A stretch of 64,000 nucleotides of DNA from an uncultured Candidatus Saccharibacteria bacterium (GTDB lineage: Bacteria > Patescibacteriota > Minisyncoccia > Phycocordibacterales > UBA918). Shown one piece after another: positions 1 to 54,145 of this stretch. The position numbers were made by a program, and so were the translations under genes. The notes under the pieces were generated by a model, which did no database searches, was not told where the DNA came from, and worked only from the letters and a program-made list of their open reading frames with translations. The stretch is from assembly GCA_964350645.1 (NCBI GenBank), contig CAYGJY010000001.1, forward strand, positions 208,621 to 272,620, in the 5' to 3' direction. The first letter of the stretch is position 1. Each line of letters starts with the position of its first letter.

Positions 1-14
1 AGATAGTCAAATCA

Positions 15-215
15 ATGATTGGCTCTGTAATGGTTGGGATATTGGCCGCCTTAGCGATAAATACTCTTTTACTTCCACTAAGTATTTTTCAAATAGTTTC
101 TGTATTTAGAAACTCAAGAACTTACCATCGATGGATATTGTTACCAGCAGCATTTGTTGGACCGATATTTCTATGGCTTATCTATAGCAGCTTATCAAAT
201 GCTGTGTATATGTAA
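15..215 (+). CDS. hypothetical small membrane protein
   Basis: 66-aa ORF, hydrophobic; no recognisable motif. Confidence 0.3.
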   Translation: MIGSVMVGILAALAINTLLLPLSIFQIVSVFRNSRTYHRWILLPAAFVGPIFLWLIYSSLSNAVYM

Positions 216-249
216 CTGTAATTTTTTCAATATTTATCCAGTCTAGTGT

Positions 250-606
250 TTGAAATGCATCCAACTGGTGGAGCATTGTAAAGAAACGTCAAGTGAGAAA
301 TCGCTTGGCTTTTTTTGTTATACTGACGTTATGAATGAATTTATTATCCATGGGTGTGAGCAGGTATTACGATTTTCGTCAGTCGCCAATTGGGGCGACT
401 TGGCGGAAGACCGGCAAGTACAATTAGCTTTTAATATGGGAGTAGTGTCACTTGGCCTTAATCTAGCAAAAGAAGCCGGCTACGACTGGATTGCCGGAGC
501 GCGTGCTGGCACTGTTTCAATGCAAGCATTTCACGAGCATGTTCGGTCGCTTGTGATAACTTATGCAGTTTTAGTAAATGAAGAGAATGTACGCAAACCA
601 ATTTAG
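250..606 (+). CDS. hypothetical protein
   Basis: 118-aa ORF with a 30-nt spacer before the next gene; no motif recognised. Confidence 0.3.
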   Translation: MKCIQLVEHCKETSSEKSLGFFCYTDVMNEFIIHGCEQVLRFSSVANWGDLAEDRQVQLAFNMGVVSLGLNLAKEAGYDWIAGARAGTVSMQAFHEHVRSLVITYAVLVNEENVRKPI

Positions 607-10355: not shown

Positions 10356-11921
10356 ATGATTTCCAAGCCATTACAGCAGTTGGTTGCATCCTTCTCACAA
10401 AGCCCTGCTCAGACTGATTGGTCTGAGTATACCGGTCCGCGCTTTGTGACCAACAAGCTAACGATCTCTGTTGGTTCGTTTTACGAGCGTATGCGGTATG
10501 CAGTAGATTACCAAGAAGAACACGTGCTGCGTCGGGCGGCTATCGAACGCATTATTCGACGCTTAGTGATGTTTACCTCAATGTCTGGTTGTGGACGGAC
10601 AGTACTTGAAGAACTCGTGCAAGCACGCTATGTCGAAAATGATTCAGTACCCGAAACCTTTGCTGATGACATTCAACTGATTTTAAATAAATATCAGGCT
10701 CTGTCAGAGCTGATTGAAAATGGCAATAAAGATATCCTTTGGTCATTTGCAGCGGTAGAGATTGAGCGGCATTTGTTCCCGGCCGTTATTGATGAGCGCA
10801 CCTTCACTGCTTTATTCCAGTCTGTGGTTGAGTACTTTAAGCCAAAAGAGCAAAACCTCATGAGCGACGCTGATTTCAATCTACGCGTGTACGTTGCCTG
10901 TCGGCGGATTTTCTTGCTTGAATCGCACGCAGCGCTCAATTTTGCGCTGTTTCGGATCATGGTGCCAGAGTGGAAACAAAGCCTTGGTCAGCCAGAGGAA
11001 GTGCTTCGCTCGGTAGCTGCACGATTTGAAAAAATTCAAGCTGAAGCTGATGTACTGATGAACGATCCAACACACTGGAAAATCACTTTTAGATTGAAAA
11101 ATGAAAGTATCTATTTTTCACTGATAAACGATATCGTTCGACGTTATGGCTCTACCTCAGAGACAGTGTTAGGTGATCCTGAACGCCTGAAGAGTGCCAT
11201 TATCCCGTTTCTGGAGCGCGCTTACGATACACATAAAGAAAAAATCAGTCACAGTGGTACACGAGCGATTATTTATGTGTTCATCACAAAGATTGTGATT
11301 GGGTTATCGATTGAGCTACCGTATGAGATCTTTATTCTCGGTGAGATCAACTATTATGCGCTTGGAGTTAATATTCTCTTCTTTCCGCTTCTTCTTATTG
11401 CGATGACTAAGACAGTGAAGTATCCAGGTGTCCAAAATACTGATGCGATCGTGCGCGGATTGCAGTCATATATTGAGGGTGATTTTCCGCAAACGCGTTT
11501 TATTACGCTAAAGACTCGGTCAGCTTTTCAGACCTTCATGAACACCATCTTCACGTTACTGTTTTTCTCTCTAACCTTTGGAGTGATTGTATACGTGCTT
11601 AATCTGCTGCACTTCAATATTGTTAGTATTGGCCTCTTCTTGTTCTTCCTTTGTATTGTGACCTATATGGGCTTGCGCATTCGCCACAAAGCACGAGAGT
11701 GGACTCTCGAAGATGAGGATGAATCTTTTGGTGGTTTACTCTGGTTCTTGCTCGTTGTGCCGGTTACGCGGACTGGTCGCTATATCTCAGAACAGCTTTC
11801 GAACGTGAATATCTTTGTCTTCATCATGGACTTCATTTTAGAGACACCATTTAAGATGATCCTCGGCTCGTTTGACTCGTTTGTGTCGTATGTTCGCGAA
11901 GCAAGACGAGATGGATTTTAA
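10356..11921 (+). CDS. hypothetical polytopic membrane protein
   Basis: 521 aa; soluble N-terminal half; at least 5 hydrophobic helices in the C-terminal half. Confidence 0.5.
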   Translation: MISKPLQQLVASFSQSPAQTDWSEYTGPRFVTNKLTISVGSFYERMRYAVDYQEEHVLRRAAIERIIRRLVMFTSMSGCGRTVLEELVQARYVENDSVPETFADDIQLILNKYQALSELIENGNKDILWSFAAVEIERHLFPAVIDERTFTALFQSVVEYFKPKEQNLMSDADFNLRVYVACRRIFLLESHAALNFALFRIMVPEWKQSLGQPEEVLRSVAARFEKIQAEADVLMNDPTHWKITFRLKNESIYFSLINDIVRRYGSTSETVLGDPERLKSAIIPFLERAYDTHKEKISHSGTRAIIYVFITKIVIGLSIELPYEIFILGEINYYALGVNILFFPLLLIAMTKTVKYPGVQNTDAIVRGLQSYIEGDFPQTRFITLKTRSAFQTFMNTIFTLLFFSLTFGVIVYVLNLLHFNIVSIGLFLFFLCIVTYMGLRIRHKAREWTLEDEDESFGGLLWFLLVVPVTRTGRYISEQLSNVNIFVFIMDFILETPFKMILGSFDSFVSYVREARRDGF

Positions 11922-11941
11922 TTAAAATTTTGAAAAACAAA

Positions 11942-11973
11942 ATGCGGTCGTTTTACGACCGCATGTTGTTTTG
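11942..11973. terminator. bidirectional rho-independent terminator
   Basis: atgcggtcgt/acgaccgcat perfect stem flanked by an A-run and a T-run, between convergent genes. Confidence 0.8.
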
Positions 11974-11975
11974 AT

Positions 11976-13475
11976 TTAAAACTCTTCGAGATATCGGACT
12001 TCTGCTCCTAGGCTGGTAAGGCGGTCTACCAAATTTTCGTAGCCGCGGTTGATGCTGTAGATGTTGCGTAAGACTGAGGTACCTTTAGCACCGAGCATAC
12101 CGATCAGAAGAATCGTTGCCGGTCGCAAGGCTGGTGGACAGATCATTTCGTTGGCATGCAGGGGTGTTGGCCCAGTGATGTAAATCCGGTGTGGATCAGC
12201 TAGCATTGTCTCGGCTCCAAGTTTGTCGAGCTCGGTGAAGTAGATAGCCCGTTTTTCGTAGACCCAGTCGTGGATCAGAGTTGCACCGGTGGCCTGGGTG
12301 GCGATTACTGCAAAGAAAGGCAGGTTGTCAATATTGAGGCCAGGGTAAGGGCGAGCGTAAATTTTCTCAGTCAGGGCTGTAAGTTTTGAGGGTTTGGTTT
12401 TGATATCAATCAGTCGGGTCAAGCCGTTGTGTGACAAATACTCTTTACTTTTTGTGTATTGGAAGCCCATTTTCTCCAGTTTCAAGAGTTCCAGTTCGAG
12501 GAAATCAATTGGACAACGGGTGATAGTTAGTGCTGAATTAGTCAGAATTGAAGCTGCTAAGAAGAACATGGAGTCAGTTGGGTCTTCTGACAAAGTGTAC
12601 TCGAGGTCGGTCTTTATTTGTTTTACGCCAGTTACGGTGAGGGTAGTAGTACCCACACCTTCAATGGTGACGCCACAAATGCGTAAGAAAGCACAGAGTT
12701 CCTGCACCATGTAGTTACTTGAAGCGTATTTGATGACAGTTGTACAGCCTGAGAGAGCGGCAGCCATGAGAGCATTCTCTGTTACGGTGTCGCCTGACTC
12801 GTAGAGAATAATTTCGGCCGGACACTTTGGTGCCATGTTGATTTTGAAGGCATCTGCGGTAGTGGTGATCCCGACGCCAAAATGCTCAAGGGCATAAAAG
12901 TGGGGGCGCACGGTACGGCTTCCAAGCTTGCAGCCACCAGACTGTGGTAGTGAAAACTGACGTAAGTGATGGATTAGTGGTCCAATAAACATCACAATAC
13001 TGCGGGTCTTCCGGGCCGCTTCAACATCAATTTTAGACAAATCAAATTTTTTTGGCGGTGTGATGATGACGTCGCTATCCTGCCACTCGATTTTCACACC
13101 GATACTCTCAAGCACTTCAATTAGTCGATGCACCTCTTCGATTCGCGGCATATGACGGAGTGTTGTTGTGCCTTTGTTTAAGAGTGAAGCGCAAAGGAGT
13201 ACGACGGCGCCGTTTTTTGAGGTGTTGGTTTGAATCGTTCCAGATAGTTTTTTACCGCCAATGATCTCGAGGTTCATGGAGCCAGGGTTTGGGGAGAGGA
13301 GGTTTTTGTTGAGTACTTTACTGATTTTACGCACCATATCGGTCGAGACGTTTTGTTTGCCGCTTTCGAGTCGTGCGACGGCACTTTGTGTTGTATTCAG
13401 CTTTTTTGCTAACGCAGCTTGGGTCATCTGCATACTCTCGCGCACAATGGCGATACGTTTTCCAATGTTTTCCAT
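11976..13475 (-). CDS. murA: UDP-N-acetylglucosamine 1-carboxyvinyltransferase fused to an N-terminal XRE-family HTH domain
   Basis: Residues 1-60 are an XRE HTH (MTQAALAKKLNTTQSAVARLESGKQN); the rest is full-length MurA with the catalytic Cys in GGCKLGSRTV and a NRGYENL C-terminus; ATG at 13475, whereas the ORF-track 13484 start is TTG. Confidence 0.75.
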   Translation of the reverse strand: MENIGKRIAIVRESMQMTQAALAKKLNTTQSAVARLESGKQNVSTDMVRKISKVLNKNLLSPNPGSMNLEIIGGKKLSGTIQTNTSKNGAVVLLCASLLNKGTTTLRHMPRIEEVHRLIEVLESIGVKIEWQDSDVIITPPKKFDLSKIDVEAARKTRSIVMFIGPLIHHLRQFSLPQSGGCKLGSRTVRPHFYALEHFGVGITTTADAFKINMAPKCPAEIILYESGDTVTENALMAAALSGCTTVIKYASSNYMVQELCAFLRICGVTIEGVGTTTLTVTGVKQIKTDLEYTLSEDPTDSMFFLAASILTNSALTITRCPIDFLELELLKLEKMGFQYTKSKEYLSHNGLTRLIDIKTKPSKLTALTEKIYARPYPGLNIDNLPFFAVIATQATGATLIHDWVYEKRAIYFTELDKLGAETMLADPHRIYITGPTPLHANEMICPPALRPATILLIGMLGAKGTSVLRNIYSINRGYENLVDRLTSLGAEVRYLEEF

Positions 13476-13486
13476 ATGCGCCAAAT

Positions 13487-13502
13487 ATAGCAGATATGCT
13501 AT
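13487..13502. promoter_or_regulatory. near-perfect 16-bp palindrome (ATAGCAGATATGCTAT) in the murA/mreB divergent region
   Basis: Read directly; 12 nt upstream of the HTH-murA ATG; candidate operator. Confidence 0.45.
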
Positions 13503-13549
13503 GTTTATTCAATTTGTGTATTGTGCAGAATCCGCTACACTAGTCCGAC

Positions 13550-14563
13550 ATGAGGCGTTCATTTATCCCCAAAGTTGGTATTGATTTAGGTACCACTAAT
13601 GTATTGGTATTTATTCCGGGAGAGGGAATAGTTCTGAATGAGCCGTCAGTGGTTGCAGTTTCAAATGACAGTCAAGTCCTTGCGGTTGGAACTGAGGCTA
13701 AGCGTATGATTGGCCGCACGCCTGATAGTATTCGAGCCTATCGCCCTATGAAAGATGGCGTTATTGCCGACTATCGAGTGACTGAAGCTATGCTCCGATA
13801 TTTTCTCAGGAAAGCATTGCCACGATTTAATATTCTAAAACCAGAAGTGATGGTTTCGGTGCCGGCTGGTGTGAGTTCGACCGAAAAACGAGCAGTGGTA
13901 GAGGCGGCGATCAAAGCTGGTGCTCGCAATGCGTACGTTGTGAAGGAGCCGATTTTAGCAGCGATTGGCGCCGGTGTGCCGATTTATGAACCACAAGGTC
14001 ATATGATCGTTGATATAGGTGGGGGAACGATCGATGTGGCGGTAATTAGTCTAGGCGGAATTGTAGCTGCCAACTCAGTGAAGTGTGCTGGTAACAAGAT
14101 AGATGCAGCGATCATTGATTATATTAAGAAGACGCGGAATTTATCGATTGGTGAGAAGACAGCTGAGGAAGTGAAGATCACCATCGGTTCAGCTTTGCCG
14201 CTTGAAGAAGAATTGGTTATGGATATTAAAGGACGCGATCTACTGTCTGGCCTGCCACGCACGACTGAGGTGCGGACAAATGAGATTGTTCGAGCAATTA
14301 CTCGTGAGTTGCGTGACATGGTGAAGGCAATTAAAGATGTGTTTCAAGATACACCACCTGAACTTGCAGCAGATATTATTGATGACGGGATTATTATGAC
14401 CGGAGGGACTTCACAGTTACGCAATTTCCCTGAGTTGATCAAGCGTCGTACGGGAGTAAAAGCGAAGCTCGCTGACCAGGCACTCTTTTGTGTTGCTAAA
14501 GGTACCGGGATTGCTCTTGAGCACCTCGATACCTATAAGCGCACAGTGATGACGAAGCGGTAG
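13550..14563 (+). CDS. mreB: rod shape-determining protein MreB (paralog 1, detached from mreCD)
   Basis: Actin-fold phosphate-1 motif VGIDLGTTNVLV and full MreB colinearity. Confidence 0.85.
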   Translation: MRRSFIPKVGIDLGTTNVLVFIPGEGIVLNEPSVVAVSNDSQVLAVGTEAKRMIGRTPDSIRAYRPMKDGVIADYRVTEAMLRYFLRKALPRFNILKPEVMVSVPAGVSSTEKRAVVEAAIKAGARNAYVVKEPILAAIGAGVPIYEPQGHMIVDIGGGTIDVAVISLGGIVAANSVKCAGNKIDAAIIDYIKKTRNLSIGEKTAEEVKITIGSALPLEEELVMDIKGRDLLSGLPRTTEVRTNEIVRAITRELRDMVKAIKDVFQDTPPELAADIIDDGIIMTGGTSQLRNFPELIKRRTGVKAKLADQALFCVAKGTGIALEHLDTYKRTVMTKR

Positions 14564-14647: not shown

Positions 14648-17425
14648 ATGCAGGAAACTGCTCCGAAACAGTTCTCTTCACCGGAAGAAGAAATCGCTTT
14701 TTTGCGTGAACAAATCGCTTCTAAAGAACGCGAACTACTTAATCGTGCTCCAGAGGCAGATGCACTGGAGTTCGAGACTGTGGCCAAGCAGGAGCTGCAC
14801 GAATACGGCACCTTCACTCCTAAAACAATCTTGAGCCAAGAACATCAAATGCTTCAAGAGGAAGTGGCTCACGCAGCGGCTAAAGTTGAAGTGTCCACCA
14901 ACCAACTCGACGAGATTATGCAGGTGGCCTTAGAAAAGGGAATACACAACGCTTTATCAGTAGTTGAAAAATGTAATGACCCACATTTGACCGATGAAGT
15001 GCATCGGCAGTTGATTGAACATATTAAGTCTGGTAAGCACGTTCAGGATTTAAAAGAAGATGTCCCGCCTTGGCATATTTTGCATATGAGTTTGTTCGAG
15101 GTGCAGTTGCCTGAATTTGTTGAATCCAATGGTAAAGAGTTAGCGCTGAGTGAAATGATGTCGATGATGTCACAGTTTTACGCGGGTATGCAGACGATTG
15201 GTCAGAATAAACGAGCGGAACACTATGTCCTTGAGGTGGCTGTTGAAGAAGATAGTGACGAGATTGTATTTTACGTTGCTGTCCCGAATCAATATATTGA
15301 TCTGTTTGAAAAACAAATCCTCTCTCTTTTTCATAATGCAGTCCTGATTGAGCGACAGCATGACTATAATATTTTTGATGATCACAGCGTAGCGCTCGCT
15401 TCTATTGCTAAGTTGCGTAAGCATCCGGTGTATCCACTGAAGACGGCCGACAAATTCGAAGCTGATCCTCTAACTGTCGTGTTGAACGCATTCTCAAAGA
15501 TTGAAAAAAAGGGTGGTGGAGCATCACTCCAGATTTGTATCAAGACGCCACCAGCCCGCTATCACCACGACTACGAGCAAGTCATGGATCGGATCAACGA
15601 CGGGATGTCGCCTCGGGATTCAATTAAGCGGATTTCATTGGCAGGCGATTTGTTCCATGCCTTTAAGGATATTGTTCTCAATAAAGATAGCGATGAACAC
15701 AAGACAATGTCGCAAGAGTACAGTGAGGATGTGGAGTTTATTAAGCAAAAAATTGAGTCACAGATTGTTGATACTAATATTCGTCTGGCGGTGGCTGCAT
15801 CATCAAAACAAAAAGCTAACCAAATTCTCGATGAGATAGAGGCGAGTTTCCATCAATTCGAAAATACCCACGCAAACAGTTTGAAATTTGAACGACCAAC
15901 GGGCACTAAACTGAAAGCTGCTTTGAAAGCCTATTCATTTCGTGAATTCAAAAAAAGCGAAGTGTTGCCGCTGTCTCTCAATGAATTAACCGGGTTACTT
16001 CATTTTCCAGGTCGAGGGATTGCGTCATCACCGCAGTTCCGACAGTCACGCTCTAAGACTGCCGCTGCACCAAGTGAGATGCCGCAGCTTGGTACATTGC
16101 TTGGAATCAATGATCACCGTGGTGTTAAGAAAGAAATTTACGTCACACCAGAAGATCGTCTGCGTCACTTCTACATCATTGGACAGACCGGTACCGGTAA
16201 GACCACCTTGATGAAAAATATGATCGTGCAAGATATCCAAGAGGGGGCAGGTGTGTGCATGATTGATCCACATGGTACTGATATTGAAGATGTGCTTGGG
16301 TCAGTACCGCCGGAGCGAGAGCAGGATGTTATTTACTTTGATCCTTCCAATCTCGATCGGGTGATTGGTCTCAATATGCTTGAGTACGACCGCAATAAGC
16401 CCGAACAGAAAACCTTCGTCGTTAACGAACTCTTTTCAATTTTCCAAAAACTCTACGGAGCAAACCCGGAATCAATGGGGCCGATGTTTGAACAATACTT
16501 CCGTAATGCAACGCTCTTGGTGATGGATGACCCTGACAGTGGTAATACCCTGATGGATATTTCTCGGGTGATGGCAGATGCAAAATATCGTCGAATGAAA
16601 CTTGAAAAAGCGACCAACCCGGTTGTGGTGCAATTCTGGCGTGAGATTGCGACCAAGGCTGGCGGGGAGGCTAGTCTCGAGAATATCGTGCCGTACATTG
16701 TGTCGAAGTTTGATGTATTCACTGCCAACGATTACATGCGCCCGATTATTGGTCAGCAACATAGTGCCTTTAATTTCCGCGAGATTATGGATCAAAAGAA
16801 AATTCTGCTGGTGAATTTATCTAAGGGACGGCTCGGGGAGATTAACGCCAACCTCATTGGTATGATTATTGTCGGCAAGCTTTTGATGGCGGCTCTTTCT
16901 CGGGTGGATGATTCAACCAAGGGCTTCCCACCGTTTTATCTGCATATGGACGAGTTTCAAAATGTCTCAACGCCGTCGATCTCAGCTATTTTGTCAGAAG
17001 CTCGTAAGTATAAACTTGGCCTCACGATTGCTCACCAATTCATCGCTCAGCTTGATGAAAAAATTAAAGATTCGGTTTTTGGTAACGTTGGTTCAATGGC
17101 GACGTTTCGGGTTGGGCCTGAAGATGCTAAATTCCTCGAACAGCAATACGAACCAACCTTCACTGACAGTGATCTGATGAACGTACCAAATCGCAATGCA
17201 TTCATGCGTATCTTGGCTAATGGTTCACCAACTAAGCCATTTAGTATGGCGACCATGGCACCGGCTGAGATCGATCTGGCTCGGGTACAGGAACTCGTGA
17301 CTGCCAGTGGTTTGATATATGGACGACCTCGGGCAGAGATTGAAGCAGAAATCGCTGAGCGCTACAAAAAAGAAGAGCCGAAAGCTTCAGACGGCGACGG
17401 TCTTTTAGGCGGATTTAGTTTATAG
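14648..17425 (+). CDS. VirD4/TraG/HerA-like P-loop NTPase with a 450-aa soluble N-terminal extension
   Basis: Walker A IIGQTGTGKTT, Walker B-like YLHMDEFQN, and TIAHQF; no N-terminal TM anchors. Confidence 0.6.
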   Translation: MQETAPKQFSSPEEEIAFLREQIASKERELLNRAPEADALEFETVAKQELHEYGTFTPKTILSQEHQMLQEEVAHAAAKVEVSTNQLDEIMQVALEKGIHNALSVVEKCNDPHLTDEVHRQLIEHIKSGKHVQDLKEDVPPWHILHMSLFEVQLPEFVESNGKELALSEMMSMMSQFYAGMQTIGQNKRAEHYVLEVAVEEDSDEIVFYVAVPNQYIDLFEKQILSLFHNAVLIERQHDYNIFDDHSVALASIAKLRKHPVYPLKTADKFEADPLTVVLNAFSKIEKKGGGASLQICIKTPPARYHHDYEQVMDRINDGMSPRDSIKRISLAGDLFHAFKDIVLNKDSDEHKTMSQEYSEDVEFIKQKIESQIVDTNIRLAVAASSKQKANQILDEIEASFHQFENTHANSLKFERPTGTKLKAALKAYSFREFKKSEVLPLSLNELTGLLHFPGRGIASSPQFRQSRSKTAAAPSEMPQLGTLLGINDHRGVKKEIYVTPEDRLRHFYIIGQTGTGKTTLMKNMIVQDIQEGAGVCMIDPHGTDIEDVLGSVPPEREQDVIYFDPSNLDRVIGLNMLEYDRNKPEQKTFVVNELFSIFQKLYGANPESMGPMFEQYFRNATLLVMDDPDSGNTLMDISRVMADAKYRRMKLEKATNPVVVQFWREIATKAGGEASLENIVPYIVSKFDVFTANDYMRPIIGQQHSAFNFREIMDQKKILLVNLSKGRLGEINANLIGMIIVGKLLMAALSRVDDSTKGFPPFYLHMDEFQNVSTPSISAILSEARKYKLGLTIAHQFIAQLDEKIKDSVFGNVGSMATFRVGPEDAKFLEQQYEPTFTDSDLMNVPNRNAFMRILANGSPTKPFSMATMAPAEIDLARVQELVTASGLIYGRPRAEIEAEIAERYKKEEPKASDGDGLLGGFSL

Positions 17426-17433
17426 TTTAGTGT

Positions 17434-19722
17434 ATGCCAAGGGAAAACGAACTTCATAGAGGCAATCAAGAGCGTGAACGATCGGATTACTCTATCGATG
17501 AAATGAAGAACATGATGCCGTATGACGAATTTTTCTGCTGGGTAGAAGAGGGGGACAGTAATGCTTTAAAGTACGGCGAAACCAATAATCAGTTTCGTAC
17601 ACCAGAGAACTTACGAGTGTATCTCACAGCTGCTTTTGGTCAGTTTATAAATAAACCAGAGGACGTTTATATTATAAGAAATGGTATCGCAACAGTCGAC
17701 GCTATTTTGCAAGGGCATAGAAATGCAGTAACCCAGAACGACAGAGACGTAATTAATGAGGCTGCGATGCGTCGATTGCAAGAATTTTGCCTGGAATTTG
17801 GCATTGTTGCTGAAGGATCTGAGGCAGTGGAAAACACACCAACCATTCCCGAGATACCAAAAGAGCCAGAAACGATTTCTCTCAAGGATTTTCAGTCAAT
17901 AGTTGAAGAAACAATTTGGAATATTGCTGTTGAAGAAGGTGGTCAGATAGATTTAAAACACCTGTCACAAACTCCGCTGTTTGTAAGACAAAAGGAAGCA
18001 CATCTAAACATTTTACAAGGTTTACTAAAACTTGGTGTCATTTCTTCCGTTGACCAGCCCGAAATCAATGCTGATGTTTTAGAAAAATTCAATACGAGAC
18101 TGGTAACTGAGTATTCCGAAAAAGATTCGTCACTCGAGGATGCATTGATAGAGATGACAGGAATTCAAGATGAGACAACTGTTCAGGCGGCTCATTCTGC
18201 CTGGCAAGAGTATTTTGCACAGTATTCTCACACACTCGAAGGTATTAATGGGCATATAGAAAAACACGCTGTGAACGTGGGTGCTGTGCGGTTTGAAGGA
18301 GAACCATACGTTAAAGACTGGGCTGATAAAGGTGAAATTGATGCGTTGCTACAATTTTATAAAACCAAAAAGAAAGAGGTAGTAAATAGAGCTAAACCAC
18401 AGAATATAGCAGTCTTTAAAAAAGGTACTCGGGTAGCCGGCATGGTAAAGAAAGTCGAAATGAATTTTGCCGACATTTCTTCAATTGAACCAGGTGCAAC
18501 TACTGAAGCTCGTCTAAAGCGTCTGTTTGGCAGTACTAATGAGTTGCTCAATGCTATAAGTATTGAATTTGAGAATCGAAAAGAAACTACAGCAGCTGTA
18601 AAAGAGATTTCAGATGAAACAGGAGACTTTACTGAAGCGTTTGATTTGCAAGTGAATCCTGAAACAAAAATCGGTGCCATTTATAAGCGGATGCGCGAGC
18701 TGCGTAAGCAAGTCAAGGTAGCGGCAGATACACTAGATATTGATACCTATTCTAAAGGAGCTAAGCGAATGAACAACAATGCATTGGATGGTATTAGATC
18801 TTTCCGAAAGAACTATGCTGAGCTGGCTGACTATTTAGCACATCGTGCAGCGGAATCTAATGATCGACAATTTGGACCACGAGAGACACCGCAATTTTCT
18901 GATGAACAAGTGGCGGAAATTCAAAAACGTTTAAATAAGCTGTTCGAATATGGTCAGCGTGTCATCGATGATGTTGATACAAAACTTGATAACCAAGCTC
19001 TTTCTGGTAGTTATGAACATTTCGTGTCTACATTTGATGATATCGAGGAAGACACTGGATCACCTTTTATTCCATATCAAGAAGAGTCTCAGGCGGAGAC
19101 AATCCCAAAAAATTCTGCCGAGATGCCGACCGCCAAGACGTTTGATGAGCAAAGGTTGTCACTACAATTACTTAACAACGAGCTATCTACTGTCTATGGG
19201 ACAGAAGTTGATTTTGAAAAAAAGATTGGTCCGCTATACCAAAAACAAACAAAAAGTTTTGGTCGCCAAGGGTCCAGTATTGCAGAGATGGATGTAAGAA
19301 CGTTTTTGAAGAAAAACTCGCCAGCTGATCCACTTGCTCAACTTATCCGCAAGTGGGAGCGCCAGACAGGTATTAATCCAGAGCAGGCAATAAGTGGTCG
19401 CTATGGAGGCTATACAACCCAGTCAGTAGAAGGATATTTACGAACAGCAGCTGGAGATATTACGTTAAGAGAAAGTGAAAATTTGAAGAGTGAAGGTTCA
19501 CAGCTAAAAATGAAAACAGCCGCTGAAGAGTTCAAAAAAATAAAAGTACCACCACTTATAAAAGAGAAGAAGAGGGATGTTGATTCAGAGGAATGGAGGA
19601 AAGAAGTTACAGTTCCTGCAGGAGTAAAAAATACTACTGCCTTTGCCTTAGGGAGGTTTGCAGCATTTGGTGCTAGTAAGATTCGTAATGCAGTAAAAAA
19701 TATTTTTGGTCGGACTAACTAA
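17434..19722 (+). CDS. hypothetical large acidic protein
   Basis: 762 aa, 8 nt after the ATPase gene; no motif recognised. Confidence 0.45.
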   Translation: MPRENELHRGNQERERSDYSIDEMKNMMPYDEFFCWVEEGDSNALKYGETNNQFRTPENLRVYLTAAFGQFINKPEDVYIIRNGIATVDAILQGHRNAVTQNDRDVINEAAMRRLQEFCLEFGIVAEGSEAVENTPTIPEIPKEPETISLKDFQSIVEETIWNIAVEEGGQIDLKHLSQTPLFVRQKEAHLNILQGLLKLGVISSVDQPEINADVLEKFNTRLVTEYSEKDSSLEDALIEMTGIQDETTVQAAHSAWQEYFAQYSHTLEGINGHIEKHAVNVGAVRFEGEPYVKDWADKGEIDALLQFYKTKKKEVVNRAKPQNIAVFKKGTRVAGMVKKVEMNFADISSIEPGATTEARLKRLFGSTNELLNAISIEFENRKETTAAVKEISDETGDFTEAFDLQVNPETKIGAIYKRMRELRKQVKVAADTLDIDTYSKGAKRMNNNALDGIRSFRKNYAELADYLAHRAAESNDRQFGPRETPQFSDEQVAEIQKRLNKLFEYGQRVIDDVDTKLDNQALSGSYEHFVSTFDDIEEDTGSPFIPYQEESQAETIPKNSAEMPTAKTFDEQRLSLQLLNNELSTVYGTEVDFEKKIGPLYQKQTKSFGRQGSSIAEMDVRTFLKKNSPADPLAQLIRKWERQTGINPEQAISGRYGGYTTQSVEGYLRTAAGDITLRESENLKSEGSQLKMKTAAEEFKKIKVPPLIKEKKRDVDSEEWRKEVTVPAGVKNTTAFALGRFAAFGASKIRNAVKNIFGRTN

Positions 19723-19761: not shown

Positions 19762-21327
19762 GTGTTATTATTAAAGCAACGTATGGTGGATGCCCAGCAT
19801 AGTTCTTCAGGTGGTGGTTCTTCGGTGTCGATGACACGCTCTTTTGATGTGTCGGTCGAAGGCGATCTCTTAAAATTACTTCAGTTTATCCGTCGCGGAC
19901 CAGTGCCACAGATATTGCAAGCTGGTTTTCGTGATGCAGTCTTAGATTATTCTCAAACAAAAGATCCGACTCTGCTTGATGGATTAGTCGCTGAATTGAC
20001 AAAGCACAATGTAATAGTGCAGGCAGCTGGAGTAAATTTAGGACAACCAGTAATGGCAACACCAACACCTGTAACTGCTTCTTCAGCACAACCGATCGTC
20101 GCTAAGCAGCCGGCGATAGGTGCAAAACGCCCCCGACCAGTCTTTGGAGCCACTGCTCGAGTTAGCGATACTCAGGCTCCGTCTGAGTCAGTCAGCAAGC
20201 CGACCGCTGAACCTTCTGTGCCTGCACCGACACATACCGAAGTTAAAAAAGTTTCAGTAACTTCTGTTGAACCAGCTGTTCCCAATTCTGCTGCAGAAGA
20301 ACCTGTTGTTGTAGATGACACATCAGTCGCAGGTCAGACTGAGATTCGTAGTGAAGATGTAACTTTACCAGAAGCTCCCTCTGTTTCTGAAGTGGTGCCC
20401 GAAGTTTCATCCTCACCAGCAAATGCTGCTGATCCATTGACACGCATCAAAGAGATTAAGAAGTTGATTAATGAAAAGGTGGGTAATCCAGTTAATTTGA
20501 TTGATGCTAATAATGAAGTTGGACGCGAGTATATGAACGCTCTCCTGAATGCCATGAAAGTGATCAATGGCGGCACTCCTGATGAAGTAACACTTGCGAT
20601 GGATCGTCTTGAGAAGGCATTTGCAACTGTTGAAGAATCAATTTCTTCTGGTGAGACAGTAATTGGCAGTCTTCCTGCTACAACACCAGGCGTACCTCTT
20701 ACACCAGATGCACCTGCTGCGACAGCACCAGCAGCTGAACCGTCACCGGCTCCAGCAGTACCAGCGCAACCAGCCGATGCACCAATTTCAACTCCAGTCT
20801 CACCAGTATCTGCAACTCCTGCAGTGCCGCCAGTTCCTGTTGCACCACCTACTTCAGTGCCTCGGGCTGCTGCACGACCTACAACAACTCCAACGCAATC
20901 TGTAGCGGCTACATTAGCAGCGGATAATGCTTCAATCACATCACAAGCAGCCGCCAAAGCTGCAGAGCTTGCCAAAGCTGCAGAGTCAACCGCAAACGAT
21001 CCATTGCAGGCTGAGGCCATTACAGATGGGCTCAAGCAGCTTCTGGCTGAGTGGAAACTCTTTAAAGGTTCGGGTATTTTTGGTACTGGTCCAAGCGGAA
21101 TTGAAAGTGAACTGTACAAAACCTTGGCACCGCTCCCAATGGCTGCCGTGATAGCTAACCGTTTCGAAGGAGCAACACCTGAAGTTAAGCAGAGTATTGC
21201 CGACTATATGAACGGTTGGCGTTATGAACAAACGGTTGTTCACGAAATGAATGAAACTTTTGAACACTATCTCCGACGAGTAATTAAAGCCATTCTCGAT
21301 AGAAAAAATCCAACAACTGCGGCATAA
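19762..21327 (+). CDS. hypothetical protein with Pro/Ala/Thr-rich low-complexity linkers
   Basis: 521 aa; PAPAVPAQPADAP-type linkers between structured segments. Confidence 0.45.
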   Translation: MLLLKQRMVDAQHSSSGGGSSVSMTRSFDVSVEGDLLKLLQFIRRGPVPQILQAGFRDAVLDYSQTKDPTLLDGLVAELTKHNVIVQAAGVNLGQPVMATPTPVTASSAQPIVAKQPAIGAKRPRPVFGATARVSDTQAPSESVSKPTAEPSVPAPTHTEVKKVSVTSVEPAVPNSAAEEPVVVDDTSVAGQTEIRSEDVTLPEAPSVSEVVPEVSSSPANAADPLTRIKEIKKLINEKVGNPVNLIDANNEVGREYMNALLNAMKVINGGTPDEVTLAMDRLEKAFATVEESISSGETVIGSLPATTPGVPLTPDAPAATAPAAEPSPAPAVPAQPADAPISTPVSPVSATPAVPPVPVAPPTSVPRAAARPTTTPTQSVAATLAADNASITSQAAAKAAELAKAAESTANDPLQAEAITDGLKQLLAEWKLFKGSGIFGTGPSGIESELYKTLAPLPMAAVIANRFEGATPEVKQSIADYMNGWRYEQTVVHEMNETFEHYLRRVIKAILDRKNPTTAA

Positions 21328-51457: not shown

Positions 51458-52084
51458 TTAGTCGTCTTTGTCACGGTCTTTCAGGGGATCTCTGCCTTTG
51501 CGCCGCAGGGCACTATCATGTGCAAACATGAGGTTTGCCAAGGTATGTTGTTCTTCAACAGGTGAATAAGACCCAAGTTCATTATAGTCAACGTCAGGGG
51601 GGATTGACATGGTGACAACTGGCATGTCAGGCCAGGCCAGGCTACTATCACGAAACATGTTTCGACACACTCGGCAGGGATGCAGCGTCGTACAGTTAAT
51701 TTGACTCGGATCATCTTGGTGTTCGGCGACTACTAGAATACCAACAATTTTATCGAAGCCACGTGCGGTAGCTTGGTCTAAAATACGACGTTCCGCGCAG
51801 TGTTTATCTGCATCTGGGGTTTCTTTGCTGTTCCAGCCAGTAAGTATTTCAAACTCATTAGTTTCAGTGTTTAAGACAACTGCAGCAGCTCCTACACCGA
51901 AATTTCGATAATTTAATTTCTCGTCTATTACTTTACGCTGCATGGCATAAGCAGACTGATATAAGGTAACTTTGTTATTCCAGAAATACTCCAGAGCGTC
52001 TTTTAGTTCTTTTGGTTCTTCGCCATAAAGACGTTTAGAATTTTCAATTACTGCTTTCGTTACATTTGTTGGCCTCTCAATCAT
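51458..52084 (-). CDS. dCMP/cytidine deaminase family protein
   Basis: HCAERRIL and PCRVCRNM zinc-binding motifs. Confidence 0.75.
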   Translation of the reverse strand: MIERPTNVTKAVIENSKRLYGEEPKELKDALEYFWNNKVTLYQSAYAMQRKVIDEKLNYRNFGVGAAAVVLNTETNEFEILTGWNSKETPDADKHCAERRILDQATARGFDKIVGILVVAEHQDDPSQINCTTLHPCRVCRNMFRDSSLAWPDMPVVTMSIPPDVDYNELGSYSPVEEQHTLANLMFAHDSALRRKGRDPLKDRDKDD

Positions 52085-52144: not shown

Positions 52145-54145
52145 CTAGTTCACCTTCCGCAACGAATCCTTGATATCAAATCGAGGATTTACTTTCTTTC
52201 CAGGATTGAAGATGTCGTCGGGATCGAAAGTGTGTTCGAGTTTTTTAAAGAGTTCTAGGGTGGCTTTGTTAAACATCTTCGAGAGGTGTGGGGTGCGAAT
52301 AATACCGTCGTTATGTTCACCACAGATGTTGCCATCGTACTTGACCGCCGTGGCAAAAAATTCCTCAGCCATTTTTTCTACCAAGTCAGGAGTGGTTTTG
52401 CTAGTGAAGTCGAGGAGGGGATAGAAGTGTAAGTGGCCGTTGCCGCCGTGGCCGTGGACTGCAGCCGTAACATTGTATTTTTTGAGGAGGCGCTTGATGT
52501 CAGTGAAGAACTTCGGCAGGTGCTTTGGTGGGACGGTCATGTCTTCAAGGAAGGCTGCCGGACGTTTGTGTTTGTCTTGGAACTTTGAAAGCGTGTAGCT
52601 GGCTCGGCGAATTTGCCAAAACATCTCGTGTTCGGTCGTGTTTGTGACTAAACGAGCCTTCGTGCCCGTAGCTTTCTTGATAGCGGTTACGGCTGCTGCA
52701 GGGTCAGTTACTTGGCTAGTATCGAGTGTGACCAGAAGTGTGAACTCAGGAGTTTTGCGCATATACCGGACGTGGTACAGGGTATACATGGCCAAAAGCA
52801 CTTTATAGTACTGAGCGCCAGAAAGACGGTCTTTGAAAAAAGATGGGTTCTTAAGTGCTAAATCGAATGTCAGGCCGTCAAATAGTTCGACATTGATTGG
52901 GTCGTATTCGAGGGCTTTGATGATTGTTTTACCTGCATCTTCAAGACTAAAGATTGGAATGGTGACCAAAACAGTGTCGTTCTTGATTGGCTCAGTGCGC
53001 ATAGTCATTTTGGTGATGACACCAATAGTGCCTTGGCTACCAGCGATCAGATGACAGAGGTTGAAAGTAGCTTTACCTTTCTCAAAGTCAGCTACCGAAC
53101 CGTTGATAACGTCCCAGAGTGGGTACCCGGCAGAGTTCTTTTTGGTTTTTGGTTCGGCATGGTCGACTGTGCTTTCGTGTTTTTTGATAAGTTCAAAAAC
53201 AGCTTTGGCGATTTGTCCGTGGGCGTTGTCTTTTTTGATAAGGGCTTTAAATTCCTTTAGTGTCAGTGCTTTGAAGGTATAGGTAACACCGTCATGCAGG
53301 GTGACATCTAGTGATTCAACCCAGTCAGCACAGTGACCAAAACGAAGCGAATCAGGACCGGCGGAATTATTAGCTACGGCGCCACCAACTGAGCAAATGT
53401 CTTTTGATGCTGGGAAGGAAGGTAAGTAGACATCTTTCTTCTTCAAGGCTTTTTCTAAGTCACGCCACATGAGACCTGGTTCACAGGTAAAGGTGGTCCC
53501 AGAACGACGTTCATCGACTGAGATGAGCTCGTGCATATGAGCACACATGTCGATTACGACAGAATCAGTTAGTGAGCCACCAGAGAGGCCCGTGCCTGCC
53601 GCACGGGGAGTGAGTGACAGTGAAGGAAATTCAGCGGTGTTTACGGCTATCACTTTTACTGCAGTTTCAACGTCTTTTTGGTTGTGCGGCTGGATGACAA
53701 TTTGTGGCTTTACTGAAAAAATACTTTCGTCATAACTGTAACGTTTGAGGTATTCCTCACTAGTGCTAATGCCACCCTTGAAGCCAGCAGCACGGAGTTT
53801 TTGTTCGATTAAAAGGTGTCCAAGGGGCTCTCGCTTTAGTGAGGCAAATGATTTTTTAGTATCGAGAGTGGCAGTTTTGTCGACTTTTGGGCCAGTAGCT
53901 TTGGCTGGAGCAGTTTTGATTACTTTTGTAGTAGATGTGCTCACAGTTTTGTTTGAGGCACCTTTTTTGACCACTGATTTTGTAGTAACAGCTTTTACAG
54001 ACTTCGCTGCGGCTACACGTTTAGTGGTTTTTTGGGTAGCTTTTTTAGCAATACTTTTTTTACGAGTAGTTTTTGCAGCTTTTTTAGCAGTGCGCTTTTT
54101 TGTGTCGGCGTCGACCACCGCAAGGGTGCGTGAAGAACTTGGCAT
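52145..54145 (-). CDS. FAD-linked oxidase (GlcD/D-lactate dehydrogenase-like) with an N-terminal histone H1-like Lys/Ala/Thr-rich tail
   Basis: FAD-binding AAGTGLSGGS motif; first ~110 aa are KKAAKTTRKK-type repeats. Confidence 0.75.
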   Translation of the reverse strand: MPSSSRTLAVVDADTKKRTAKKAAKTTRKKSIAKKATQKTTKRVAAAKSVKAVTTKSVVKKGASNKTVSTSTTKVIKTAPAKATGPKVDKTATLDTKKSFASLKREPLGHLLIEQKLRAAGFKGGISTSEEYLKRYSYDESIFSVKPQIVIQPHNQKDVETAVKVIAVNTAEFPSLSLTPRAAGTGLSGGSLTDSVVIDMCAHMHELISVDERRSGTTFTCEPGLMWRDLEKALKKKDVYLPSFPASKDICSVGGAVANNSAGPDSLRFGHCADWVESLDVTLHDGVTYTFKALTLKEFKALIKKDNAHGQIAKAVFELIKKHESTVDHAEPKTKKNSAGYPLWDVINGSVADFEKGKATFNLCHLIAGSQGTIGVITKMTMRTEPIKNDTVLVTIPIFSLEDAGKTIIKALEYDPINVELFDGLTFDLALKNPSFFKDRLSGAQYYKVLLAMYTLYHVRYMRKTPEFTLLVTLDTSQVTDPAAAVTAIKKATGTKARLVTNTTEHEMFWQIRRASYTLSKFQDKHKRPAAFLEDMTVPPKHLPKFFTDIKRLLKKYNVTAAVHGHGGNGHLHFYPLLDFTSKTTPDLVEKMAEEFFATAVKYDGNICGEHNDGIIRTPHLSKMFNKATLELFKKLEHTFDPDDIFNPGKKVNPRFDIKDSLRKVN

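Follow-up and report, generated by a model that had tools for sequence, protein, structure and literature searches.

Enzyme-repressors with a fused DNA-binding domain include BirA (a biotin ligase with a winged HTH), PutA (a proline dehydrogenase with a ribbon-helix-helix domain) and NadR (an NMN adenylyltransferase with an HTH). MurA catalyzes the committed, fosfomycin-targeted step of peptidoglycan synthesis, and most of what is known about how its level is controlled concerns model organisms, in which proteolysis and feedback inhibition are at work. The mechanisms described are post-translational, namely ClpCP/ReoM in Firmicutes and feedback by UDP-MurNAc, and do not involve self-repression. 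To our knowledge, few transcription regulators have been described for the bacteria considered here. In a 64-kb stretch of DNA (hereafter the window, meaning the whole stretch that was analyzed), we investigated a gene in which an XRE-type HTH is joined to MurA and which is preceded by a palindrome. No description of an HTH-MurA fusion was found in the literature searched, in which the operator sequence itself was also queried. We consider it quite likely that HTH-MurA is a bifunctional protein, both an enzyme and a repressor of its own gene, with DNA binding, dimerization, repression and enzymatic activity all being inferred.

The open frame on the minus strand runs uninterrupted from a TTG codon (11976..13484), and translation from the ATG at 13475 gives 499 aa and a stop codon. 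The TTG at 13484 was rejected as the start: it is part of the -10 box and precedes the predicted start of transcription, and the starts of the homologues align to the ATG. The single unbroken HTH-MurA frame described in the first-pass annotation was thereby confirmed, and both peptides quoted there, MTQAALAKKLNTTQSAVARLESGKQNVS and SGGCKLGSRTV, were found in the fusion protein. Pfam searches assigned HTH_3 to residues 9-59 (E 1.9e-12, 47.5 bits against a cutoff of 23) and EPSP_synthase (PF00275) to residues 73-486 (E 1.7e-41). In the AF2 model, the HTH helices span residues 4-14, 19-26, 30-38 and 45-55, and the MurA domain has a pLDDT above 90, while the linker between them has a pLDDT of about 65 that falls below 50 at residues 62-64. 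For the HTH, the model provides the four helices only; it is uninformative on a dimer interface and gives no indication that the HTH touches MurA. Ten HTH residues are invariant among 82 fusions (G5, R12, T18, Q19, Q30, S31, R35, E37, G39 and N42). The coordinates of all features are given in Table 1.

Table 1. Features of the HTH-MurA locus, in window coordinates.
Feature	Position	Strand	Basis or remark
HTH-MurA coding sequence	11976..13475	-	499 aa + stop; homologues begin at the aligned ATG
XRE/Cro-C1-type HTH domain, residues 4-56, four predicted helices	13308..13466	-	Pfam HTH_3, AF2
Predicted recognition helix Q30-S38 (QSAVARLES), after T28-T29	13362..13388	-	AF2 and operator covariation
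Flexible linker, residues 57-67 (NLLSPNPGSMN), ~11 residues	13275..13307	-	pLDDT, low identity
MurA (UDP-GlcNAc enolpyruvyl transferase) domain, residues 68-496	11988..13274	-	NF006873, PDB sequence matches, Foldseek
Cys182 codon, loop GGCKLGSR	12930..12932	-	Corresponds to Cys115 of E. coli MurA (catalytic, target of fosfomycin)
Predicted operator ATAGCA-N4-TGCTAT, ATAGCAGATATGCTAT	13487..13502		Half-site centres 10 bp apart
Extended -10 of P_murA (TGcTATATT)	13484..13492	-	Promoter scan; overlaps the right arm of the operator
-35 of P_murA (TTGAAT)	13507..13512	-	Promoter scan; 17-nt spacer holds the operator
Bidirectional intrinsic terminator, common to the convergent ORF 10356-11921	11942..11964		Promoter/terminator scan
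Putative divergent mreB promoter TTGTGT-N16-TACACT	13514..13541	+	Read by eye; below scan threshold, inferred

The MurA domain scored 307.7 bits against the NCBIfam MurA subfamily NF006873 (cutoff 297) and 293.4 bits against the equivalog TIGR01072, under its cutoff of 392.7. A Foldseek comparison with solved MurA structures gave TM values of 0.87-0.93, and a PDB sequence search also matched MurA. The earlier claim of a complete MurA with its catalytic cysteine was borne out by residue alignment, which placed Cys182 in the GGCKLGSR loop. The window protein keeps the equivalents of K22, N23, R91, C115, R120, D305, L370, R371 and R397, where the numbering follows what we take to be the E. coli MurA reference sequence. 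It has the fold, the Cys115 loop, K22, R120, D305 and R397 in common with the canonical MurA of E. coli and E. cloacae, from which it differs in its N-terminal HTH extension of ~67 residues, absent from every solved MurA in the PDB fold search, in its score below the TIGR01072 cutoff and in an Ala at the position equivalent to D369. This Ala (motif PPALRP) occurs in the whole clade, including the unfused relatives. Given that D369N has been found in E. coli clinical isolates (PMC4790336), D369 is not strictly essential. We found no second MurA in the 64-kb window, nor in the contexts around fusions with an intact Cys. Judging from its sequence, the window protein is most likely an active MurA enzyme.

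We also analyzed homologues of the fusion. The first-pass annotation had left open a recent gene-fusion artefact and had suggested a search of relatives for the N-terminal extension. The HTH and EPSP_synthase architecture was present in 120 of the 120 metagenomic homologues listed, and a second set of homologues (n = 120, ~55-65% identity) was likewise fused. Relatives are encoded in 313 species-genome stretches, and the fused architecture occurs in hundreds of species genomes of the Paceibacteria (Parcubacteria), a large CPR group of ultra-small bacteria. From these 313 stretches, 80 species loci were fetched, 77 of which were complete, and in the complete loci the alignment runs from residues 1-4 onward. 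The in-frame XRE-HTH::MurA fusion is therefore genuine, and a recent fusion artefact can be rejected; the fused homologues in both sets and the species-genome relatives also rule out a frameshift or an assembly artefact. Mean pairwise identity was 0.60 in the HTH and 0.66 in MurA, against 0.37 in the linker; by this measure, the two domains are conserved to about the same degree. We infer from these alignments that the fusion is ancient and under selection.

Next, we considered the palindrome, which had been placed at 13487-13502 and 12 nt upstream of the ATG; the position was correct, and the gap is 11 nt rather than 12. Its 6-bp arms are perfect and its 4-bp centre is not self-complementary, so that 14 of the 16 positions are symmetric. 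The window alone gave no significance, with one match to ATAGCN6GCTAT (at most one mismatch) against 1.7 expected by chance. Exactly one ATAGCN6GCTAT was found in 70 of the 77 complete loci, or 70 of the 80 fetched (~9.5 kb each), in each case immediately before the fusion gene, and a chance palindrome was rejected only after this cross-species test. The distance from the palindrome to the ATG was 9-13 nt in 54 of 74 loci, and the flanks were unconserved, with an information content of 0.3-0.4 bit at most. A scan for other copies, proposed in the first-pass annotation, found no further motif in the 64-kb window and none beyond one per locus in ~700 kb of related loci; copies did occur upstream of XRE/toxin-antitoxin-like cassettes in metagenomes. 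A regulon of many sites was rejected for the window and the murA neighbourhoods sampled, in which no extra targets appeared. The motif scan covered only ~760 kb around murA genes, and for this reason the genome may hold further members of the regulon outside these neighbourhoods.

The only sigma70-like promoter found in 11850-13700 (TTGAAT-17-TG-TATATT, 13512-13484 on the minus strand) encloses the palindrome. The last base of its -10 lies 8 nt before the ATG; therefore, the murA mRNA is predicted to be leaderless. The genes of the window generally lack a Shine-Dalgarno sequence and have their -10 box 7-8 nt upstream of the ATG, and the dominance of leaderless, extended -10 promoters in this genome bears on gene calling in these organisms. 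Given its own promoter and the downstream terminator, murA is predicted to be monocistronic. The right arm of the palindrome, TGCTATA, also resembles extended -10 elements elsewhere in the genome, for example those at 54212 and 60441. The evidence that points specifically to a protein site is confined to the left arm and to the symmetry.

The possibility that mreB is controlled from the same site, also raised in the first-pass annotation, found no support as a feature that is conserved. The putative mreB promoter lies 8 nt from the mreB ATG at 13550, back-to-back with P_murA, and the operator does not overlap it. The divergent mreB-murA arrangement is very widely conserved. The distance between the palindrome and mreB varies from 43 to >1000 nt, and the palindrome stays with murA past insertions, both where mreB is displaced and where glyA or a pilin gene adjoins murA. 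On the basis of this variable spacing and of the displaced mreB genes, conserved co-regulation of mreB was rejected.

The HTH and the operator also vary together, in that residue 29 (T or S) covaries with base 4 of the operator. Fusions with T-T-Q-S pair with ATAGCA (~69 loci), whereas 13 of the 14 fusions with T-S-Q-S have ATATCA-type arms (ATATCA-N4-TGATAT), the one exception being locus L080. None of ~60 unrelated HTH proteins encoded beside exact ATAGCA palindromes has T-S-Q-S. Only one or two evolutionary events may lie behind this pattern. The locus offers a testable regulator-operator pair for an uncultivated lineage, with a predicted specificity code in which T29 goes with G and S29 goes with T.

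The same palindrome also occurs outside murA, in unrelated gene contexts. Among the 120 metagenomic loci listed with the exact 18-mer TATAGCATATATGCTATA, only nine were murA loci. In 77 of 120 metagenomic loci, an HTH of the same type was encoded no more than 700 nt from the palindrome, as compared with one of 60 control windows; these HTHs belong to small XRE proteins and to operons of a Gp49 toxin plus an XRE protein. The HTH of the fusion matches TIGR03070 (E 7e-9) and has in common with HigB/Gp49-HigA-type antitoxins and small XRE repressors an HTH_3 with a T-[TK]-Q-S-x-[IV]-[AS]-R-[LIM]-E recognition helix. These cassettes carry the same 18-bp palindrome in their promoters as the fusion gene does, and toxin-first operons repeat the geometry found at murA, which consists of a -35, a gap of 3-4 nt and the palindrome with its right arm serving as an extended -10. 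In contrast to the antitoxins, the fusion has no toxin gene adjacent to it, and its HTH is joined to a 430-aa enzyme and not to a short antitoxin tail. The fusion gene is flanked in the window by mreB (PF06723) and by a membrane ORF of 521 aa without a Pfam match; no adjacent cognate toxin gene was found. As far as can be judged from these likenesses, the operator-HTH module was probably captured from a Gp49/HigB-XRE toxin-antitoxin-like cassette, and the case would then document the domestication of a promoter-operator-HTH cassette of toxin-antitoxin type by an essential gene. The earlier suggestion that an XRE dimer binds the palindrome is strongly supported by footprinting across species, promoter position, covariation and the independent association with such HTHs. 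The palindrome is accordingly predicted to be an operator that the fused HTH binds as a dimer, where both DNA binding and dimerization are inferred.

In a sister clade, the catalytic residues of MurA have been lost but the HTH and the operator are retained, which means that HTH function is selected independently of catalysis. In four of four contexts, these degenerate genes form part of a mur cluster and have an intact, unfused MurA as neighbour. Several of the degenerate proteins also lack the substrate-binding residues R91, R120 and R397. The clade represents a MurA-derived pseudoenzyme family that probably regulates mur operons.

If HTH-MurA represses its own gene, two HTH domains would bind the two ATAGCA half-sites, both of which would be on one helix face, given that their centres are 10 bp apart. 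The bound protein would exclude RNA polymerase, because the operator fills the spacer and the extended -10 of the single murA promoter. A rising concentration of HTH-MurA would then lower murA transcription, a negative feedback by which the cell would set its amount of the enzyme that commits UDP-GlcNAc to peptidoglycan. We know of no evidence that MurA must dimerize.

It could be argued that the palindrome is promoter sequence only, whether as an extended -10 that is symmetric or bidirectional or as an inverted repeat that arose by chance, and that the HTH is a functionless relic of the fusion. The right arm does fit the TGnTATAnT consensus of other window genes, and the match is not above chance within one window. 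However, the left arm is kept in 70 of the 70 matching loci and persists where the upstream gene is co-directional, the '-10' on the opposite strand usually lacks its final T, the G-to-T change is symmetric in both arms although it falls at the free 'n' position of the extended -10, and the HTH is conserved as much as the enzyme. This explanation is therefore very improbable. We also considered the possibility that a separate XRE protein or antitoxin binds the palindrome in trans, and that the HTH of MurA serves, for example, in nucleoid tethering or protein-protein contact. Given that many small XRE and toxin-antitoxin-like cassettes in metagenomes use this palindrome, free proteins with such specificity exist. 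Nevertheless, it is with the recognition helix of the fused HTH that the operator variants covary, and neither the 64-kb window nor the surroundings of the 80 loci encode another HTH of this type. Retention of the operator beside the fusion in hundreds of species would, moreover, not be ensured by a mobile toxin-antitoxin regulator, and binding in trans seems improbable to us.

A further possibility is that the fusion is primarily a transcription factor for its neighbours (mreB, a VirD4-like gene or mur genes), with the MurA domain acting as a sensor and another MurA carrying out catalysis. This matches the situation of the degenerate clade exactly and would accord with the very wide conservation of the divergent layout, but the window protein retains its catalytic residues, no other MurA is encoded in the 64-kb window or around intact-Cys fusions, and the distance from the operator to mreB is not conserved, so that we regard it as unlikely for this protein. 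Self-repression by HTH-MurA could also be extended to a ligand-coupled trigger enzyme, in which HTH binding is set by the catalytic or conformational state of MurA (open or closed; UDP-GlcNAc, PEP or UDP-MurNAc) and transcription follows precursor flux in addition to protein concentration. The linker is short, at ~11 residues, and the MurA structures 3su9, 3swd, 3swe, 3swg and 8d84 are complexes with UDP-MurNAc and the covalent PEP adduct, which shows tight binding of a downstream metabolite. A degenerate HTH-MurA-like clade in mur clusters would also be expected if the MurA fold were a sensor or oligomerization domain. However, the AF2 model offers no evidence of HTH-MurA contact and has low confidence in the linker, the degenerate proteins without substrate-binding residues may not bind the same ligands, and plain concentration-dependent autorepression accounts for all the data. 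This extension is thus tentative.

It is also conceivable, though we would not presume it, that the MurA fold is a metabolite-sensing and oligomerizing effector domain of a transcription factor that converts the status of UDP-GlcNAc, PEP and UDP-MurNAc, sensed as the enzyme passes from its open to its closed state, directly into promoter occupancy, and that duplicates of it became pseudoenzyme regulators of whole mur operons. If this speculation is true, it would represent a previously unrecognized layer of transcriptional control for cell-wall precursor synthesis. A self-repressing MurA, if confirmed, would in itself be a new and very economical solution suited to the tiny genomes of CPR bacteria. 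Like BirA, PutA and NadR, HTH-MurA is a single chain that contains both an enzyme and a DNA-binding domain, and its operator is situated at the promoter of its own gene or pathway. It differs from them in the enzyme, in the pathway (peptidoglycan) and in the HTH class (Cro/C1 XRE), and ligand dependence has not been shown for it. In addition, and unlike in those three proteins, its DNA-binding module is shared with toxin-antitoxin-like cassettes, and a pseudoenzyme branch has arisen within its family.

The first-pass annotation had read an XRE-type HTH and a complete MurA in a single frame with a palindrome at its 5' end, and both readings were borne out. The minus-strand frame runs without interruption from TTG 13484 or ATG 13475 to the stop at 11976, contains both of the peptides that had been quoted, and encodes 499 residues from the ATG. 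The product, here called HTH-MurA, carries the two Pfam domains listed in the table. The top matches among HTH-only models were antitoxin and phage-repressor families (TIGR03070 Y4mF/HipB-like, RstR and HigA). The protein passed the NCBIfam MurA subfamily model NF006873 (307.7 bits; cutoff, 297) and missed the stricter equivalog TIGR01072 (293 bits, under the cutoff of 392.7). The palindrome, ATAGCAGATATGCTAT at 13487-13502, has perfect 6-bp arms around a 4-bp centre and lies 11 nt from the ATG; we refer to it as the operator. Convergent with murA is a 521-aa ORF (10356-11921, plus strand) that matches no Pfam family and has hydrophobic segments towards its C terminus; it has the bidirectional terminator in common with murA.

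Residue equivalence was assigned by alignment to E. coli MurA; the alignment to PDB 5ujs and 5u4h offers an independent check of the motifs. In E. coli numbering, the window protein keeps K22, N23, R91, C115 (Cys182, in the loop GGCKLGSR), R120, D305, L370, R371 and R397. The sole replacement among the residues compared was D369 to Ala, which is clade-wide and found in unfused relatives too. In E. coli, D369N is present in clinical isolates and has been associated with lower susceptibility to fosfomycin (PMC4790336). The AlphaFold2 model (pLDDT 89.6, pTM 0.85) showed an HTH of four helices (4-14, 19-26, 30-38 and 45-55), a linker of low confidence (56-67) and a confidently predicted MurA fold in which the Cys loop is flexible. 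Comparison with solved MurA structures by Foldseek gave TM scores of 0.87-0.93, and the N-terminal HTH was absent from every solved MurA that it matched. The 64-kb window encodes a class B PBP and no second MurA.

All 120 of the homologues listed in a first search were ~499 aa with both domains (77-100% identity). Scanning a single genome for each species gave 313 stretches encoding a relative, of which 80 were kept; in the 77 complete loci the alignment begins at residues 1-4, with 63-82% identity, and the MAG labels are Kaiserbacteria, Nomurabacteria, Taylorbacteria and Paceibacteria/Parcubacteria. The N-terminal extension thus recurs in the listed homologues and the species loci alike, which rules out the recent gene-fusion artefact that had been offered as an alternative. 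Additional fused clusters, down to 30-53% identity, were found among 50%-identity cluster representatives and in a second homologue search, whose listed matches included a large ~506-aa group (Colwell-, Lipton- and Taylorbacteria). Close relatives without the fusion also exist (proteins P0122, P0123, P0126 and P0131). Where database names were given for the listed homologues, they were mostly MurA, with the HTH unmentioned. We also considered whether the HTH is a relic domain. Among 82 aligned fusions, mean pairwise identity was 0.60 for the HTH, 0.66 for MurA and only 0.37 for the linker, and G5, R12, T18, Q19, Q30, S31, R35, E37, G39 and N42 were invariant. The relic idea was rejected, since the HTH and the enzyme are conserved to a similar degree.

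A consensus scan of 11850-13700 found only one sigma70-like promoter, that of murA. The operator fills its spacer and contributes the TG together with the opening bases of the -10 box. Between the end of this box and the ATG lie 8 nt; transcription is therefore expected to start 0-2 nt before the start codon, and the murA mRNA would be leaderless. With its own promoter and the terminator, murA is monocistronic. In 54 of 74 loci, the distance from the end of the palindrome to the ATG is 9-13 nt. A protein at the operator would occlude RNA polymerase, in the geometry of a classical autorepressor. At many other first genes in the window, a TAnnnT box, commonly TGnTATAnT, has its end 7-8 nt from the ATG, and a Shine-Dalgarno sequence is lacking (genes at 14648, 32933, 51458-52084(-), 52145-54145(-), 54212, 60441 and 13550). 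This genome thus seems, as a rule, to make leaderless mRNAs from extended -10 promoters; no paper in the library searched brings together leaderless transcripts, Patescibacteria and promoters.

Coordinates of features in the window and in contexts of more distant fusions (L201 onward)
Feature	Locus	Position	Strand	Residues	Remarks
HTH_3 domain	window			9-59	Pfam, E 1.9e-12
EPSP_synthase domain	window			73-486	Pfam, E 1.7e-41
D369-equivalent motif PPALRP	window	12102-12119	-	453-458	
murA promoter -35, TTGAAT	window	13512-13507	-		followed by 17-nt spacer
murA promoter -10, TATATT	window	13489-13484	-		TG just before; consensus scan
Bidirectional terminator	window	11942-11964			strong; 3' of murA stop
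Putative mreB promoter, TTGTGT-16-TACACT	window		+		by eye; 8 nt to ATG; back-to-back with murA promoter, outside operator
Degenerate HTH-MurA-like gene	L201	3498-5003			
Degenerate HTH-MurA-like gene	L202	6001-7518			
Degenerate HTH-MurA-like gene	L210	7001-8503			
Degenerate HTH-MurA-like gene	L211	5663-7180			
~185-aa HTH_19/HTH_31 protein	L203	82-627			
~185-aa HTH_19/HTH_31 protein	L205	720-1283			

The palindrome is above chance across species, though not within the single window, where ATAGCN6GCTAT gave 1 match at up to one mismatch versus 1.7 expected. Of the 80 species loci, 70 have exactly one copy, in each case directly 5' of the fusion gene, and no further copy was found elsewhere in the ~9.5 kb per locus of those 70. 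The first-pass annotation had proposed a scan for other copies; in the window and the species loci, this gave no copy beyond the one beside the fusion gene. Three of the other 10 loci are cut off at the 5' end; the rest have ATATCA on both arms (L072, L075 and L076) or on one (L078), a near variant (L070) or a copy with one mismatch (L073), and L079 alone shows no site in the 90 nt inspected. The consensus across loci is T-ATAGCA-TATA-TGCTAT-AcT, in which T at -1, position 6, the TATA centre, position 11, A at +17 and T at +19 are conserved without being forced; the information content of the flanking intergenic positions does not exceed 0.3-0.4 bit.

The recognition helix starts with T-T-Q-S or T-S-Q-S, which differ at residue 29. 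T-T-Q-S was found in 117 of the 120 homologues listed in the first search, and T-T-Q-S fusions have ATAGCA arms (~69 loci). T-S-Q-S was found in 108 of the 120 listed in the second, and 13 of 14 such fusions examined have an ATATCA-type arm on at least one side (L070, L072, L075, L076, L078, L201, L202, L203, L205, L206, L208, L210 and L211); the exception is L080. The G-to-T change is present in both arms. The base affected in the right arm is the free 'n' of the TGn extended -10, so promoter function cannot account for the change. The two states may go back to no more than one or two evolutionary events.

An exact metagenome search for the 18-mer consensus TATAGCATATATGCTATA gave at least 120 loci, and only nine of the 120 listed lie beside HTH-murA. 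The 18-mer is a widespread promoter-operator of ~95-aa XRE genes and of Gp49/HigB-XRE toxin-antitoxin-like operons, in two fixed geometries. In about 35 listed loci, a 15-nt gap separates TTGACA from the palindrome, and directly after it comes a ~95-aa XRE protein (MIKPKDRKHLDF...GTKQSVISRLESG; for example L088, L098 and L161). About 17 have TTGAC(A/T), a 3-4-nt gap and the palindrome, and most of these precede a Gp49/HigB-like toxin gene and then an XRE gene (L082, L133, L153 and L180 are toxin-XRE examples). The murA geometry is the latter. The fusion-HTH profile had a match no more than 700 nt from the palindrome at 77 of the 120 listed loci, versus one of 60 control windows taken from these contigs; therefore, the palindrome and this HTH type are a cognate pair, whatever gene is attached. 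Among the listed loci, HTHs near the 18-mer have T-K-Q-S (30) or T-T-Q-S (27) and never T-S-Q-S. The same profile had no match in the 64-kb window besides the MurA fusion. L160, on a 1.2-kb metagenome contig, has two exact 18-mers 33 bp apart plus partial copies (498-548) and looks like a tandem operator array. Judging from sequence, the murA operator-HTH module was most likely captured from an XRE or toxin-antitoxin-like cassette. The proposal that the palindrome is an XRE-dimer site is backed, in the absence of binding data, by the helix-operator covariation, the conservation, the promoter position and this shared module.

The first-pass annotation had also raised possible control of mreB. 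The divergent mreB-murA order is kept in nearly all loci, and a local effect of the operator on mreB cannot be excluded. However, mreB control is not a conserved feature: the operator-mreB distance varies from 43 to more than 1000 nt, the operator remains beside murA where a gene intervenes (L014, L020, L034, L055 and L057), and it is still present in more distant fusions, which have glyA or a pilin gene as neighbour. The site tracks murA, not mreB. In the T-S-Q-S clade with a glyA neighbour, a ~185-aa HTH_19/HTH_31 protein is encoded beside murB, ~3 kb upstream of the fusion. Directly 3' of mreB in the window is a 925-aa VirD4/TraG-like coupling-protein homologue (14648-17425, plus strand; DUF87, TrwB, T4SS-DNA_transf), a synteny kept in most of the 80 related loci; the ORFs at 17434-19722 and 19762-21327 had no Pfam match.

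A sister clade lacks the Cys loop, in the fusions P0132, P0133, P0143, P0146, P0147 and P0262 and in relatives P0271-P0274, and the HTH is kept in all. The six fusions have also lost several substrate-binding residues, including R91 and R120 in P0132 and P0133. In all four contexts retrieved (L201, L202, L210 and L211), the degenerate gene heads a mur-type operon with a Mur ligase, preceded by ddl in L210 and L211. The divergent operon holds an intact unfused MurA (GGC[VT]LG.R) with Mur ligases (L201, L202 and L211) or murB (L202 and L210), and each shared intergenic region has one ATATCA-N4-(T/C)GATAT site. The HTH and operator are kept without the Cys loop, and thus their function is maintained without catalysis. 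This pattern argues that regulation is a selected function of the HTH-MurA family and that the MurA fold can serve as a sensor or scaffold. The degenerate proteins are probably pseudoenzyme regulators of mur operons.

We propose a mechanism that builds on what was established (the architecture, its conservation, the site position, the covariation and the shared module) and adds enzyme activity, DNA binding, dimerisation and repression, all inferred. HTH-MurA would be both an active MurA and the repressor of its own leaderless promoter, with a dimer on the 6-4-6 palindrome, in which 10 bp separate the half-site centres. The outcome would be a concentration-dependent feedback that keeps the level of the first committed peptidoglycan enzyme steady. 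It is also possible, though not shown, that DNA binding is coupled to the ligand state of MurA; in favour of this, MurA is seen in solved structures to be locked with UDP-MurNAc and a PEP adduct, and the linker of HTH-MurA is short. A full-text literature search found no description of the fusion or of the operator sequence, and no published operator of sequence TATAGCATATATGCTATA was found. The nearest functional kind is that of the enzyme-repressor fusions BirA, PutA and NadR. The HTH-operator module of murA is related by descent to the XRE antitoxins of HigB/Gp49-type cassettes, but murA does not qualify as a member of a toxin-antitoxin system, as the adjacent toxin gene is absent.
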